A DNA stretch of 64,000 nt from Candidatus Woesearchaeota archaeon (GTDB lineage Archaea > Nanobdellota > Nanobdellia > Woesearchaeales > GW2011-AR4), in assembly GCA_016181305.1 (NCBI GenBank), contig JACOZN010000013.1:1-64000 (forward strand), in the 5' to 3' direction. The translations under genes and the position numbers were made by a program. Under the pieces are notes generated by a model. That model worked only from the letters and a program-made list of their open reading frames with translations. It had not been told where the DNA came from and ran no database searches. Positions 100 to 47,642 of this stretch are shown piece after piece (position 1 is the stretch's first letter; every line of letters starts with the position of its first letter).

Positions 100-221
100 G
101 GCAAAAACTCATTATTATCTTAATATATATAATATATATATTAACTATTTATAAACTTTTCGGTTAAATTTGTGATTTTCCAGAATTTTCTCAAAAACAC
201 AACAACTAACAAAAATCAAAA

Positions 222-273
222 AACGAGAGCGACTTTGGTCTGTAAGGGCTATAAAAGTAAACCGCTTTTGATG
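222..273 (+). repeat. dispersed structured motif, copy 1 of 4
   Basis: AAC GAGAGCG ACTTT GGTCTGTAAGGGCT AT AAAAGT AAAC CGCTTTT GATG; related copies at 28578-28628, 33248-33296 and 46879-46932. Confidence 0.85.
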
Positions 274-300
274 ATTAATAGAATTATACTAGTTTATATC

Positions 301-4096: not shown

Positions 4097-4371
4097 ATGG
4101 GAGGACTCTGCCGGGAAGCTAGCACTCTCCTGTCAGCGCAAATGTGCTTCAGGCGCGGTGAAGCTTTGGGAGCAGCCAAAGTTGTTGCAACTTAGTCTTG
4201 CTGCTGGCGTCGAAGCTCTGCCTTGTAGGACTTGTGCTTTTGAAAATCCGTAAGGTTCGGAAGAAAGCAGCGGTAATCTTGGGCATTGGTGCTTATGAGC
4301 CACAGAGTGGAGCTTGGAGCAAGGCAGCTAACTGCAATGGCTTTTGCCCATTTCTGAGCATGTCCTCCTAT
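4097..4371 (+). ncRNA. ffs: signal recognition particle (7S) RNA
   Basis: Helix 8 motif CCG-TAAGG-TTC-GGAA-GAA-AGCA-GCGG at 4248-4273; terminal helix ATGGGAGGAC / GTCCTCCTAT. Confidence 0.88.
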
Positions 4372-14859: not shown

Positions 14860-14972
14860 TGCGGGGGAAGGGATTCGAACCCTCGCACCCACTTAGGGAC
14901 TAGCACCTCAAGCTAGCGCATGAAGTCTGAAAGCAAAAATGCCTTCAATTGACCAGGCTCTGCCACCCCCGC
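14860..14972 (-). tRNA. tRNA-Leu(GAG) with a 27-nt intron at position 21/22
   Basis: Acceptor GCGGGGG/CCCCCGC; anticodon arm CTAGC-TTGAGGT-GCTAG. Intron 14922-14948 forms a BHB (GGTC/GACT, bulges AAT and TCA, inner stem TGAAGGCA/TGCTTTCA). Confidence 0.93.
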
Positions 14973-17555: not shown

Positions 17556-17741
17556 GACTGCGGTAGTTTAATGGCAGAATAAGCGGCTGTGGAGCAACCT
17601 TTTCTTTTGCAAAGAAAAGCTTGACCAAAAGAAAGGCACTCACGAGGTGGTGGGGTAAACCCCACTGGGATTAAGCATTACTTCATGATGGGAAGGTTGT
17701 GTAGAGCCCGCTTGGCGCGAGTTCGATTCTCGCCCGCGGTC
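17556..17741 (+). tRNA. tRNA-His(GTG) with encoded G-1 and a 114-nt intron at 37/38
   Basis: G-1 plus ACTGCGG/CCGCGGT and C73. Intron 17593-17706 forms a BHB (CTGT/GTAG, bulges GGA and AGC, stem GCAACCTT/AAGGTTGT). Confidence 0.93.
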
Positions 17742-19721: not shown

Positions 19722-20057
19722 GCAGGGCTTGAATAAGCCGCCTTTTGTCAGGCCCCGAGTGTGACATGAAAATCACGACAGCCTGCCTTAGCATTAAACT
19801 AAGCGTCTTTTAAGACTTGCACCAGCCAGGGCTCACCGTTTCACCCATGCTGCAAAAACGTCAGTTGGTTAGCTCGATTCCCTCGCAGGAACCTTCACAA
19901 ATTTCATCCTTAATTGCAGCGGTCTCGTTTCTGAGTGGTTGCCCCCTATTGCTAGGGCTCGCTTCCGCGAGTGGCTCTGATCAGTCAGCAAGCCTTTGAG
20001 GCTTGAGTGGGCGGACTTTCCTCAGTTGCAAAAACCGAAGCTAAGTACAAACCCTGC
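19722..20057 (-). ncRNA. rnpB: RNase P RNA
   Basis: GAGGAAAGTCCGCCC at 20023-20009, 3' ACAAAAGGCGGCTTAT, and terminal helix GCAGGGTT/AGCCCTGC. Confidence 0.93.
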
Positions 20058-28528: not shown

Positions 28529-28577
28529 TTTAGTTACCTCCTAATAATCTGATTTTTTAGTTTTTAATCAAATCCAA

Positions 28578-28628
28578 CATCAAAAGCGGATTACTTTTAT
28601 CGCCTATGCAGCGCAAAGTCGCTCTCGT
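28578..28628 (-). repeat. dispersed structured motif, copy 2 of 4
   Basis: CAC GAGAGCG ACTTT GCGCTGCATAGGCG AT AAAAGT AATC CGCTTTT GATG, between rplP0 and rpl12. Confidence 0.85.
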
Positions 28629-28683
28629 GTTTGATTTAATTTGTTTTATTGGAATTTTTTTTATTGTTATGGACTATTCTAAA

Positions 28684-33174: not shown

Positions 33175-33247
33175 ATTTGATATAACTACAATAAAACATT
33201 GATTATAAAAATAATTCAAAACATTAAACTAAAAATAAATAAAAAAT

Positions 33248-33296
33248 AACGAGAGCGTCCTCTAAAAGTAATTGTAAAGGAGGAAACCCGCTGATG
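33248..33296 (+). repeat. dispersed structured motif, copy 4 of 4 (covariant stem)
   Basis: AAC GAGAGCG TCCTC TAAAAGTAATTGTAAAG GAGGA AACC CGCT GATG, ending 23 nt before the ispG start. Confidence 0.7.
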
Positions 33297-33319
33297 TTTA
33301 CTCAACTAAAAAAAATAAA

Positions 33320-34228
33320 ATGCTACAAAGAAGAAACTCAAGAAAAGTAAAAGTCGGAAAATTGCACATTGGGGGAGATGCGCCGATAACAGTCCAGTCA
33401 ATGACAACCACTGATACAACTGACGTAAAGGCAACTATCAAGCAGATTCAAGGATTGGAAGATGTTGGCTGCGATATTGTGAGGGTTTCTGCGCCTACAA
33501 TGGAGGCTGCAAAGGCGTTGAAAGAAATTAAGGAGAATATAAGCATTCCTCTTGTTGTTGACATTCATTTTGATTACCGCATAGCGTTAGAGGCGGTAAA
33601 ATATGTTGACAAGTTAAGGATTAATCCTGGCAACATTGGAAACACTGACAAGGTTCAGCAGGTTGTAAATGCGTGCAAAAATTATGGAGTTTCAATGAGA
33701 ATTGGAGTGAATCTTGGCTCTCTTGAGAGGGATTTGTTTGAAAAGTACGGGTACGCGCCTGAGGCAATGGTTGAAAGCGCAATGAGGCATGTCAAAATTC
33801 TTGAGGACTTGGATTTTTACAACACAATCGTTTCATTGAAAGCATCTGATGTCACTAGAATGGTGAAAGCGTATAGATTGTTTGCAGAAAAAACTGATTA
33901 TCCGCTGCATCTTGGGGTTACAGAAGCAGGAAGCAAGATTCCAGGGACTGTGAAGTCAGCAATATGCGCAAGGACAGAGGTTGATGTGATTAAACTGGTT
34001 GAGCAATTGGAAAATGCAACTGAAAGGGTAAAAAAGCCGATAAAGGTTGCAATCATGGGATGCGCTGTCAACGGGCCGGGCGAATCACGAAAAGCTGACA
34101 TCGGGATTGTAGGCGCTCCTGGAAATCATTTGTTGTACAAGGAAGGCAAGATTGTAAAAAGAGTCAATGACAATGAGATTTATGAAGTTCTTCTGAAGGA
34201 GATAAATGAGATGGAGAATGGTAAATAA
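33320..34228 (+). CDS. ispG: HMBPP synthase IspG/GcpE with an in-frame internal deletion
   Basis: VQSMTTT, VVDIHFD, RINPGN, RIGVNLGS, LHLGVTEAG and MGCAVNGPGE are present. GIGDTIRVSL and the first Cys of CPTC are absent (junction 33964/33965). Confidence 0.93.
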   Translation: MLQRRNSRKVKVGKLHIGGDAPITVQSMTTTDTTDVKATIKQIQGLEDVGCDIVRVSAPTMEAAKALKEIKENISIPLVVDIHFDYRIALEAVKYVDKLRINPGNIGNTDKVQQVVNACKNYGVSMRIGVNLGSLERDLFEKYGYAPEAMVESAMRHVKILEDLDFYNTIVSLKASDVTRMVKAYRLFAEKTDYPLHLGVTEAGSKIPGTVKSAICARTEVDVIKLVEQLENATERVKKPIKVAIMGCAVNGPGESRKADIGIVGAPGNHLLYKEGKIVKRVNDNEIYEVLLKEINEMENGK

Positions 34229-34925
34229 AATTTTTTTGATATTTTTCTTTTCTATATTGTTAATTTTTCCAATTTTTGTGAATGGTGAAGAAGAATGTGT
34301 ACTTGATAAATATATAGAAGTATCTGGAGATTTTGTTAAAGTAAACTGCGCAACTAAAGATATAACATCAAAAGAAAAAACAAATATACTTATTATAACG
34401 AAGGACAATGGTATTTCTATCAGCCCATTACTTATAGATGGAAAATATTTGCCTATGGATTTCAAAGAAATATCTAAAGACCCCATTATCTATAAATTAA
34501 ATCAATCACAAGATATGGGTCACTATGCTTTTCAATTAACAGTTCAGGGAGAAGGTTTTTGGTTATTTAATATATTTTATATTAATTCTAGAGAGTGGAA
34601 TTTAAAATATGAAAATAAAACATCACCAACTATTGAAAAATGTGGAGATAAAATATGTAATTTGGATGAAAATTGCCAGAATTGTACCATAGATTGTGGA
34701 AAATGCCCATTTCATACACCTCCCAAAATAACTCAACCTCAAAAAGATGAACAAGAATCTACTTCAAAACTTAAAGCATGGATTAAGACAAAACTTATAG
34801 ACTTGGGTATAGAATTAGAAACTAAAAATGTTACGTTAATCTTTCTTGTAGTTCTTGTAATATGTATTGGATTTTATTATTTTTTAATAAGAGGGAAAGT
34901 CACAAATAAAAAATCTAAACCCTAG
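34218..34925 (+). CDS. AT-rich membrane-anchored protein with a Cys-rich motif
   Basis: Signal peptide, CGDKICNLDENCQNCTIDC motif and C-terminal TM. Confidence 0.8.
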   Translation: MVNKIFLIFFFSILLIFPIFVNGEEECVLDKYIEVSGDFVKVNCATKDITSKEKTNILIITKDNGISISPLLIDGKYLPMDFKEISKDPIIYKLNQSQDMGHYAFQLTVQGEGFWLFNIFYINSREWNLKYENKTSPTIEKCGDKICNLDENCQNCTIDCGKCPFHTPPKITQPQKDEQESTSKLKAWIKTKLIDLGIELETKNVTLIFLVVLVICIGFYYFLIRGKVTNKKSKP

Positions 34926-45709: not shown

Positions 45710-46762
45710 ATGGAATTTTCGTTAGATGGGGCTCAAGACATGAGCGGTTTGGTAGGACAGGCGAACATAAAGGTTATAGGCGTTGGAGGAGCCGGCAATA
45801 ACATGGTTGGCTGGCTCTACAAAAAGGGCATCAAAGGCGCTGAGATAATAGCATGCAACACAGACAAGCAGCATCTTGGCATCATCGATGCTGACCGTAA
45901 GTTCCTGATTGGAAAAGGCGTTACAAGAGGGCTTGGATGCGGAGGCTTTCCCGAGAAAGGGGCTGAGGCTGCAAAAGAATCTATGAATGAGCTGAAAGAA
46001 AGCCTGAAAGGGGCTGACATGGTTTTTGTATGTGCCGGCATGGGCGGCGGCACGGGAACAGGAGCTGCCCCTGTTGTAGGGCACCTTGCAAAAGACACAG
46101 GCTCTATTGTAATCGGCACTGTCACAATGCCTTTCAAGATTGAAAGGGCAAGGGTTGACAAGGCTGAGTTTGGATTGCAGCAGCTTAGGCAAATTTCTGA
46201 TACAGTAATCGTGATTGACAACAATAGGCTGGTGCAGATTGCAGGCAATTTGCCTATACAGCAGGCATTTGCAGTTGCAAACGAGCTTGTTGCAACTATG
46301 ATAAAAGGCATTGTAGAGACGATTGCAGTTCCTTCCCTTGTCAATCTGGACTATGCTGATGTAAAAGCCATAATGCAGAACGGCGGAGTTGCTGTAATCG
46401 GAGTCGGCTCTTCTGACACTAACAGCAGGGTTGATGAAGCTGTCAAAGGAGCTTTGGCAAACCCATTATTAGAAGTTGATTACAGGGGCGCAACAGGCGC
46501 TTTAATCCATGTAGTGGGCGGGCCTGACATGACATTGGATGACATCAACAGGATAGGTGAGCTTGTGACAGAAAGCCTTGACCAGGATGCAAATGTCATC
46601 TGGGGCGCCCGAGTTGTCGAGGACATGAAAGGCAGGATAACTGTCATGACTATCATCACAGGGGTTAAAAGCCCCTGGGTGCTTGGCAAGGTTGACCACT
46701 CAATACCATCCGCAGAAGCAGTTGCGGTTTCGCAGGAGCTAGGGATAGAACTGGTTCATTAG
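45710..46762 (+). CDS. ftsZ: cell division protein FtsZ (FtsZ2-like)
   Basis: GVGGAGNN, GMGGGTGTG and NLDYAD. The YAD variant and the absence of a downstream secE suggest the FtsZ2 clade. Confidence 0.96.
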   Translation: MEFSLDGAQDMSGLVGQANIKVIGVGGAGNNMVGWLYKKGIKGAEIIACNTDKQHLGIIDADRKFLIGKGVTRGLGCGGFPEKGAEAAKESMNELKESLKGADMVFVCAGMGGGTGTGAAPVVGHLAKDTGSIVIGTVTMPFKIERARVDKAEFGLQQLRQISDTVIVIDNNRLVQIAGNLPIQQAFAVANELVATMIKGIVETIAVPSLVNLDYADVKAIMQNGGVAVIGVGSSDTNSRVDEAVKGALANPLLEVDYRGATGALIHVVGGPDMTLDDINRIGELVTESLDQDANVIWGARVVEDMKGRITVMTIITGVKSPWVLGKVDHSIPSAEAVAVSQELGIELVH

Positions 46763-46809
46763 CAGGGATTCACAATCACCCCTTTAGTCTTTGTGGTGAG
46801 ATTGTTTCT

Positions 46810-46857
46810 TTGCCTTCATTAGAAAACCACCCCCAACGTTTTTCATTATGAAGGCAA
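46810..46857 (+). terminator. hairpin downstream of ftsZ
   Basis: TTGCCTTCAT / ATGAAGGCAA 10-bp inverted repeat between convergent genes. Confidence 0.45.
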
Positions 46858-46878
46858 GCGGTGGCTCATTCAATAAAA

Positions 46879-46932
46879 CATTAAAAGCGGTTCACTTTCA
46901 TCACGCTGTTAAATCCAAAAGTCGCTCTCGTT
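46879..46932 (-). repeat. dispersed structured motif, copy 3 of 4
   Basis: AAC GAGAGCG ACTTT TGGATTTAACAGCGTG AT GAAAGT GAAC CGCTTTT AATG. Confidence 0.85.
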
Positions 46933-46991
46933 TTTTAATTTTATTTATTATTGTATTGTTTTATTGAATTAAAAAATCAAAGAATTAAAAT

Positions 46992-47642
46992 TCACTTTTT
47001 CCTAATCTTTTCCTTTAATTTATTAACATGCTTCTTAATGTGCTTATGTGTCCTTTGCACAGCGCTTTTTATCACAGGGCTCCACATTCCAAGGGCTGTC
47101 TTTGGCCCTTCAATCCTGCCCCACCATTTCTCGAAGTACATGGTATGCTCTATTCTGTATTTTGGAGGCGCTGTCGGAGTTTCATCGGCATAGCCTATTG
47201 TTATGATTCCCTGCACATTGACATGCTCAGGCAGATTGCAAAGCCTTCTTATTTCCTCTTCATCAAAAGCCCCAACCCAGCAGCTTCCCAGTCCAAGCGA
47301 GTGTGCTGTAAGCAGCATGTTTTCAATCGCAGCAGCAGCGCCCTGTATCGTGTAAAGCCTTACACCCCTTGTGCCGTAATACCTTTCAGCCTTTTCCGGC
47401 TCGCCCACAACAACAATATGTATCGGAGCGTCTGCCATCCAATGCTGCTGCACGCTAGCCTCTGCGATATCCCTTCTTTTATCCTCGTTCTTGACAACAA
47501 TAAACTTAAGATTGAAAATGTTGCCTGCGCAAGGGGCATATTTGCCTGCCTGAAGAATCTCGACAATATCGTCCCATGGAACATCCTTTTCCTTGTACTT
47601 TCTTATCGAGCGCCTGGTCCTGATGCAGTCAAAAACATCCAT
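46992..47642 (-). CDS. nitroreductase family protein
   Basis: RRSIRKY, APCAGN, ENMLLTAHSLGLGSCWVG and GYAD. Confidence 0.95.
   Translation of the reverse strand: MDVFDCIRTRRSIRKYKEKDVPWDDIVEILQAGKYAPCAGNIFNLKFIVVKNEDKRRDIAEASVQQHWMADAPIHIVVVGEPEKAERYYGTRGVRLYTIQGAAAAIENMLLTAHSLGLGSCWVGAFDEEEIRRLCNLPEHVNVQGIITIGYADETPTAPPKYRIEHTMYFEKWWGRIEGPKTALGMWSPVIKSAVQRTHKHIKKHVNKLKEKIRKK

Follow-up and report, generated by a model that had tools for sequence, protein, structure and literature searches.

A genus-restricted, multi-copy imperfect palindrome of roughly 58-62 nt, here named H1, is present in the woesearchaeotal genome under study, and it has been copied, gained and lost among intergenic spacers. 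The evidence supports the view that base pairing in H1 is under selection and that its sense strand is the strand that folds. The reading that we prefer, and to which we give about as much belief as doubt, is that H1 is a structured repeat of REP-like character that becomes part of leaders and operon spacers by co-transcription and would there form a hairpin that is probably bound by a protein or blocks exonucleases.

The window, that is, the whole 64,000-nt stretch of DNA that was analysed, corresponds to positions 1-64000 of contig C19 in an assembly (designated G000) of 1.07 Mb in 22 contigs. An initial annotation had reported four copies of the motif in the window, two of them close to rpl12 and ispG, one past a nitroreductase gene and one with no cotranscribed gene. 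All four copies are present and match the covariance model described below at 70-72 bits, and Pfam analysis confirmed their gene contexts. The copies and the parts of the first one are as follows.

212-279, plus strand: H1 copy 1, model match of 70.5 bits, with the repeat unit at about 217-274.
225-231, plus strand: GAGAGCG of copy 1, followed by the upper helix formed by 232-236 with 254-258.
259-262, plus strand: bulge AAAC of copy 1, followed by CGCTT (263-267) and the 3' flank TTGATG (268-273).
28572-28639, minus strand: H1 copy 2, 72.4 bits, in sense in the rpl10(P0)-rpl12(P1) spacer, with the rpl12 start 55 nt downstream and provided with a GGAGG Shine-Dalgarno sequence.
33238-33305, plus strand: H1 copy 3, 71.4 bits, of the TCCTC/GAGGA stem type, in sense in the spacer that separates a zf-UBP gene from ispG, with the ATG of ispG 26 nt downstream.
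46873-46942, minus strand: H1 copy 4, 71.7 bits, in sense, about 50 nt past the nitroreductase gene (46992-47642, minus strand).

Copy 1 adjoins the 3' end of an opposite-strand gene (301-2331, 676 aa, unknown by Pfam), and an orthologous copy is present in the related genome G015. Neither a promoter nor a Shine-Dalgarno sequence was found in the interval between copy 3 and the ispG ATG. The spacer of copy 4 is convergent with ftsZ (45710-46762, plus strand), and a hairpin module comes next to the copy at about 46790-46870; this hairpin-rich stretch lies on the minus strand directly past copy 4, and contains two pairings, CTTGCCTTCAT/ATGAAGGCAAAG and CCACC/GGTGG.

Some other features of the window were recorded. 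Matches to Rfam were obtained for RNase P RNA (19725-20054, minus strand), SRP RNA (4099-4369, plus strand) and two tRNA genes (14860-14972, minus strand, and 17557-17741, plus strand). Since the two tRNA genes are 113 and 185 nt in length, they must carry introns; ARAGORN detected no tRNA in the window. The ispG (GcpE) ORF (33320-34228, plus strand, 302 aa) has its best Pfam stretch at profile positions 2-211 of 343, plus a second matched stretch, and is overlapped by an ORF of 239 aa (34206-34925, plus strand) with no Pfam match; the pattern of the ispG ORF may reflect an insertion domain or a frame problem.

The decamer AACGAGAGCG, with at most one mismatch allowed, occurs seven times in the window against 1.6 expected, and seven occurrences were reached in none of 100 shuffles. 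The genome was searched with nhmmer and then with a covariance model (R1, Infernal) built from an alignment (A1), as the initial annotation had proposed. This search detected 29 full copies at E<1e-9, plus two copies split by loop insertions, so that the four copies noticed at first are a small part of the total in the genome. All 29 are located outside credible ORFs, and each is one bulged hairpin.

The consensus of H1 is 5'-AAAAWHAC-GAGAGCG-(5-6 bp)-loop of 13-17 nt-(5-6 bp)-RAHC-CGCUU-KUGAUK-3'. The lower helix consists of 5 bp, GAGCG/CGCUU, closed by a conserved G·U pair, and a 4-nt 3' bulge, RAHC, lies above it. RNAalifold analysis of the 29 copies paired GAGC with GCUU and ACUUU with AAAGU, the A-G-C/G-C-U pairs being Watson-Crick and the outer G-U a wobble pair. 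Three upper-helix pairs covary (A-U/U-A, U-A/C-G and C-G/U-A) and are intact in all 29 copies. The stem swap between ACTTT/AAAGT and TCCTC/GAGGA noticed in the window is therefore real and general: across 83 distinct copies of the genus the upper helix is paired in 99.3%, in an alignment that was fitted to the model, so that pairing counts lean towards the structure. The lower-helix pair 21-64 is G-C in 76 of these copies, A-U in 7 and broken in none. Covariation, on which the initial annotation had let its case depend, holds in this larger alignment, with a score of 0.248; shuffled alignments gave 0.134 (0/500), and sliding the partners gave at most 0.093.

The outer part of the hairpin is less uniform. 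It had been claimed that the outer stem uses G-U pairs which work only on the motif strand. This stands for one closing pair of the lower helix, 18-66, which is G·U in 77/83 copies and A-U in 3, and in part for the others: the further GAGA/UUUU pairs are confined to the CGCTTTTGAT subclass. The outer pairs C13-G70 and A17-U68 fail in 27 and 46 of the 83 copies, respectively. An outer helix ATCAC/GTGAT as an extension of the stem was rejected, since the 5' and 3' flanks show no covariation and are conserved as sequence. The loop can be enlarged: two copies of the genome (C18 43549-43679, plus strand, and C10 17127-17303, minus strand) have in their loops nested mini-hairpins that amount to 50-100 nt, of the types TCGAAAAT...ATTTTCGA and CGGAAATGC-GAA-GCATTTCCG. 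These mini-hairpins are a second dispersed hairpin family that inserts into H1 loops.

The folding strand was evaluated from predicted free energies. Copy 1 folds at -15.0 kcal/mol in sense (z -2.9) and at -5.3 kcal/mol in antisense, and copies 2 and 4 give -15.7 and -8.5 kcal/mol in sense against -7.9 and -5.0 kcal/mol in antisense. For copy 3 the two strands are about equal (-10.4 in sense and -10.5 kcal/mol in antisense). The assumption that it is the motif strand that folds thus holds for three of the four window copies, with hardly any difference between strands in the TCCTC/GAGGA one. In the family as a whole, 77/82 copies fold more stably in sense, and the mean energies are -11.9 kcal/mol in sense and -8.1 kcal/mol in antisense (p=4e-13). 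At the locus of the ribosomal protein gene S19e, the first upper pair of orthologous H1 copies is mostly A-U, with G-C in a single species and G·U in a further one. This series is the usual route of RNA compensation and operates solely on the sense strand.

Comparison with known RNA families gave no match. In Rfam 15, no family matched over H1 when the window was scanned at the gathering score, or when 14 loci comprising H1 and its companion modules were scanned at E<=1; the sole match in these 14 loci, IsrM (E=0.48, 14.9 bits against a cut-off of 376 bits), is noise. The literature searched contains no description of such repeats in Woesearchaeota or DPANN. The proposal that the motif represents an undescribed structured RNA family is consistent with both results, and the comparison with Rfam suggested along with it matched no family at either threshold.

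Several structural elements were considered and rejected. With two bulges on opposite strands and a 4-bp helix (AGCG/CGCU) between them, H1 resembles the bulge-helix-bulge (BHB) substrate of EndA. A BHB has two 3-nt bulges, each placed 3' of its strand of a 4-bp helix that has helices on both sides. On the sense strand of H1 this arrangement is mirrored, with the bulges 5' of the helix strands; the 3' bulge counts 4 nt, and 27-46 of 83 copies leave the outer helix unpaired. The BHB geometry fits the antisense strand alone, which folds worse. A K-turn in the lower internal loop is excluded by the UU(G/U) that faces GAGA, which gives no tandem G·A. A K-loop in the apical loop was rejected, since the GA...GA register occurs in 18/83 copies with the two sides unassociated (p=0.44).

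In many cases H1 opens a larger array of modules. One companion, M2/M3, has the form UAGGCGAGGC-(stem)-GCCGAGCAC-N8-(small hairpin)-RGAUUGAAA, is about 90-110 nt long, often lies 10-20 nt downstream of H1 and, in about 16 genomes, comes after the H1 copy with the highest score. A third module consists of CUUUGCCUGAAAGC...GGGGCACCCAUU...AUGGGUCUCUCG and a T-run. Their copies in the genome are as follows.

C15 138467-138560, minus strand: M2/M3.
C20 26770-26858, plus strand: M2/M3.
C2 75233-75361, minus strand: M2/M3.
C2 5440-5530, minus strand: third module.
C11 11930-12015, minus strand: third module, standing alone and antisense to both neighbouring genes.
C18 15380-15465, minus strand: third module.
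C21 60230-60310, minus strand: third module.

The 3' CUCUCGU of the third module is complementary to the 5' ACGAGAG of H1, and the two could close into a multi-branched RNA. Neither companion has an Rfam match.

The position of H1 relative to genes was examined by using crude ORF maps of the genome, with the following result.

Same-direction spacers: 14 H1 copies, all in sense.
Same-direction spacers: 2 composite copies, antisense.
Divergent spacers: 8 H1 copies, orientation uninformative.
Convergent spacers: 5 H1 copies, orientation uninformative.

In other genomes, 27/27 copies of same-direction spacers are in sense, and all 41 of 41 copies that lie cleanly between same-direction genes have this orientation. 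The downstream genes are unrelated (atpB, rpl12, ispG, S19e, tal, tyrS, bcp, MTAP and others). A riboswitch or gene-specific regulator was accordingly rejected: there is no single functional gene class, and presence differs at orthologous loci of sister species. The cis-regulatory role offered as one option in the initial annotation is thus unsupported as far as it is gene-specific, given these unrelated genes, a presence that varies from spacer to spacer and copy numbers that run from 0 to at least 83 per genome; of the three options named there, a processing or stability element, or else a small mobile one, fits best.

The canonical promoter of this genome is RAAA-NN-TTTAAATA, with a TATA box that begins 30-31 nt upstream of the start codons of about 140 genes; from this distance, a large share of the mRNAs should be leaderless. 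Some H1 copies precede genes that have a canonical promoter of their own. Eight copies end 17-29 nt ahead of a start codon in an AAAAATG-type context, those of atpB, ispG, bcp, MTAP, C15 14961, C2 65809, C7 32701 and C12 8552, and neither GGAGG nor a TATA box was found in these eight intervals. The ATG in the ...GATG tail of the motif was rejected as a start codon, as the frames it opens have 3-18 codons and no conservation.

The S19e locus is informative about transcription. Its layout is constant in all 30 genomes examined: a promoter-like box, a two-hairpin leader, a variable stretch of 20-330 nt, and AAAAAUG. H1 occurs in the variable stretch in 11/30 genomes, always in sense, and one further genome has a 3' remnant alone. 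The sole promoter-like box of the locus is located 90-115 nt upstream of H1. As there is none between H1 and the start codon, H1 should belong to the 5' UTR of S19e, and from promoter positions we infer that H1 is probably transcribed with the genes it accompanies.

Two further observations concern ribosomal protein genes. The two-hairpin leader of S19e, GCGCUAAC-N4-GUUAGCC-ARUCUR-RCACC-GCAA-GGUG (C5 ~65380-65445 in G000), is conserved with compensatory changes and matches no Rfam family; it may represent an S19e leader or an autoregulatory RNA. The rpl10-rpl12 spacers of genomes G002, G026 and G062 contain GGAGG-(mini-hairpin)-CCTCC and then a second GGAGG before the ATG; the Shine-Dalgarno-like sequence sequestered in this hairpin may serve translational control, or may stem from an insertion that duplicated the Shine-Dalgarno sequence.

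H1 might be a dedicated cis-acting RNA signal, with a hairpin base that one particular protein recognises, such as an endonuclease or a binder of the chaperone-like kind; we judge this unlikely. Stated in full, with the same low chance of being right, it has a new 5' end made or protected about 20 nt upstream of cistrons that lack a Shine-Dalgarno sequence or promoter, which would then be translated in a leaderless-like manner. The eight copies ahead of AAAAATG-type starts and the roughly 140 genes that should be leaderless speak for it, and a hairpin in which base, G·U and bulge are conserved and the loop is free is as expected of a protein site. Many copies have no such gene next to them, however: five lie in convergent spacers, and others stand before genes with their own promoters or before other RNA modules. 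Close relatives, moreover, manage the same genes without H1. An extended version, which we consider unlikely, makes H1 a punctuation module: a dedicated protein would read the G·U helix, RAHC and the AAAAWHAC/KUGAUK flanks and cut or cap the transcript, internal cistrons would gain protected 5' ends, and the module would spread without a classical transposase. If true, it would be a new archaeal way to build and rewire operons.

The sequence in front of H1 is peculiar. The A-rich leaders noticed in the window were borne out as tracts of 41-49 nt without any G ahead of each copy, as listed here.

184-224, plus strand: A/C-rich tract of 41 nt before copy 1.
28627-28673, minus strand: A-rich tract of 47 nt before copy 2, its last bases overlapping the model match.
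33202-33250, plus strand: A-rich tract of 49 nt before copy 3, overlapping the 5' flank of the model match.
46930-46977, minus strand: A-rich tract of 48 nt before copy 4.

In 68 H1 copies, G makes up at most 7% at positions -27 to -1 (13% at -28), and A exceeds 95% at -6, -5 and -2. Same-direction spacers of the genome in general hold 18% G; the tract is therefore specific to H1, and ordinary spacer composition is ruled out as its source. The tract shows no homology between copies, and the similarity of paralogues usually stops at about -8 and about +7. It could reflect a target preference or selection against T-runs on the sense strand. A fixed promoter in the tract was rejected, because matches to the TATA matrix are few and those adjoining H1 would place the start inside the hairpin.

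Within the genus, the model R1 matches 28/36 sampled genomes with 0 to at least 83 copies each, the number being counted among 84 scored candidates per genome. Under strict filters, it matched none of 24 genomes of other families and none of 150 genomes representing 143 other genera of the order. The zero-copy genomes are scattered across a weakly resolved S19e tree. A side observation concerns G018, whose S19e locus is sequence-identical to that of G015 and which has a second, different S19e gene and one H1 match in 1.8 Mb; this bin may be mixed.

Gain and loss are seen in the comparison with the closest relative, G015, whose L12 is 96% identical. The rpl10-rpl12 spacer has 155 nt in G000 and 13 nt, without H1, in G015; likewise, the zf-UBP gene and ispG are separated by a 145-nt spacer in G000 and are 1 nt apart in G015. 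Of 11 copies of G015 with flanks that map to G000, six are shared and four occur in G015 only. In the cleanest filled/empty pair, a 122-nt insertion has AAAAATG, a 7-nt direct repeat, on both sides. The filled/empty indels measure 120-145 nt, have A-rich non-conserved ends and are larger than the homologous unit of 58 nt. Two copies within G000, C5 25662 and C5 65459, are 100% identical over 58 nt with the ends AAATCAC...GTGATTT, and the synteny between G015 and G000 breaks at C5 25662.

The shared orthologous copies keep their stem type and core and have widely different loops. Between orthologues, the helices are 93-97% identical and the bulge 83%, and the loop and outer flanks reach about 50%, a contrast that is inflated, as the copies collected were those still matching the model. 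The conservation of the hairpin base at orthologous sites would seem more in line with a role in the host than with a repeat that is selfish and nothing else.

H1 could nevertheless be a DNA-level miniature palindromic mobile element of the MITE, PATE or REP class, with the RNA hairpin as a by-product; the folded single strand would then be the substrate of a recombinase, borrowed from the host or of another kind. We think this reading improbable. The patchy copy number, presence and absence at orthologous sites, the identical 58-nt pair with its inverted ends and the one insertion with a 7-nt direct repeat are all in keeping with it, and G·T wobble is also possible in single-stranded DNA. On the other side, the transposases Y1, TnpB, DDE_Tnp_1, rve and IS240 were not detected in the high-copy genomes G000, G001 and G017. 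The flank motifs show no covariation, there is no general target-site duplication, the indel ends differ from the repeat ends, and the orthologues keep their core while the loops diverge, unlike a dead transposon copy.

Mobilisation by a RAYT or IS200/IS605 enzyme in particular was rejected, as the Y1 transposase (PF01797) is missing from every high-copy genome checked (G000, G001, G015, G017, G022 and G027, with 25 to at least 83 copies); PF01797 is present in several zero-copy genomes and tends towards low-copy ones. A classic MITE was rejected as well, since the flank motifs of 5-7 nt do not covary and no parent IS (IS4/5, IS6, rve or TnpB) was found in G000, G001 and G017; as for a target-site duplication, the 7-nt direct repeat comes from a single filled/empty pair, and none was seen in the others. 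H1 shares with MITEs and with PATEs derived from IS200/IS605 a small, non-coding, hairpin-forming, dispersed and patchy nature, along with inverted flank motifs, AAATCAC...GTGATTT. It differs from them in that its inverted ends are 5-7 nt and do not covary, consistent target-site duplication is lacking, a transposase was not found, the hairpin core is conserved better than the ends, and the orientation strictly follows the direction of transcription.

We regard as very unlikely that H1 is a terminator or attenuator, formed by the hairpin and U4 in sense or by the hairpin and a long T-rich tract in antisense. This was the simpler alternative of the initial annotation, in the form of a bidirectional terminator, and it accounts for a minority of copies. 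The antisense hairpin is indeed followed by 25-45 nt of T-rich, C-free sequence, CGCUUUU occurs on the sense strand in about 45% of copies, 7/29 copies are turned towards the 3' end of a gene on the opposite strand, and 19/29 come after a gene on their own strand. On the other hand, about ten copies lie within operons, immediately ahead of start codons and between co-transcribed essential genes such as atpA|atpB and rpl10|rpl12, with no promoter after them, and eight occupy divergent spacers, which call for no termination. An intrinsic or oligo-T terminator on the sense strand was rejected, as the T-run there has at most 4 nt, is interrupted (CGCUUGUGAU) in more than half of the copies and sits inside the helix. 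The antisense fold is the weaker one and has five bases between stem and T-run. Archaeal termination is known to need oligo-T alone, a need that would leave the conserved G·U, bulge and flanks unexplained.

That H1 is the core of independent sRNA genes, 50-70 nt in length and driven by a promoter within the A-rich tract, is extremely improbable: the 3' ends of TATA-matrix matches do cluster 5-12 nt upstream of H1 in about 13/68 copies, and some of the composite copies are isolated and have T-runs at their ends (for instance C11 12013-12083), but most copies have no match, other upstream matches lie at no fixed distance, operon-internal copies need no promoter of their own, and a TATA box in that place would start transcription inside the hairpin and destroy the covarying structure.

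The preferred reading, that of a REP-like repeat acting as an RNA hairpin, takes its name from a close likeness to the bacterial REP/BIME and ERIC elements, such as the malE-malF REP of E. coli. Like these, H1 is a short imperfect palindrome present in tens of copies, extragenic, and located in operon spacers and in 3' and 5' UTRs; it is lineage-restricted, varies in copy number, is gained and lost from spacers and forms composite arrays. The RNA hairpin of REP shields neighbouring cistrons from exonucleases, the effect that is proposed here for H1. H1 differs from these elements in its archaeal (DPANN) host, in the lack of RAYT/Y1 in high-copy genomes, and in having neither a GTAG head nor inverted doublets of the REPIN type. 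Its sequence is AT-rich and not GC-rich, its bulge and G·U are conserved, and a long tract without G lies upstream of it. Among the 29 copies, no closely spaced inverted pair of the REPIN/BIME kind was found; the nearest inverted pair flanks a whole gene (C5 25662 and 26546), and in composite copies the inverted sequence at the end is limited to 7 nt of the 5' end. As neither RAYT nor another transposase was found alongside in the high-copy genomes checked, the analogy with REP is functional and not mechanistic.

As we picture it, the H1 hairpin would be stable, probably protein-bound, and would punctuate transcripts, serving as an exonuclease barrier and as a folding insulator between cistrons; we would class it neither as a switch for a ligand nor as a terminator. 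A conserved G·U and bulge, with flanks that are single-stranded and a free loop, resemble a protein-binding site. A reversed H1 would put the hairpin and a long T-run, the archaeal terminator signal, onto the mRNA strand, and we propose that H1 survives inside operons in sense only because the reverse orientation would terminate transcription. In this picture, the effect of H1 on RNA, its protein partner and its copying mechanism are what we infer.

DPANN genomes are tiny and streamlined, and this genus spends up to several kb on H1. If the hairpin shapes mRNA stability or processing, H1 would be an archaeal counterpart of the REP elements. Its spread in the absence of any transposase that could be recognised would suggest a copying route hitherto undescribed. 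A clean natural experiment is offered by sister species that differ in the presence of H1 at atpAB, rpl10-rpl12 and the S19e leader. Even if it is tolerated junk, H1 is absent from Rfam, mimics opposite-strand terminators and enlarges spacers, in which gene callers then place spurious ORFs.
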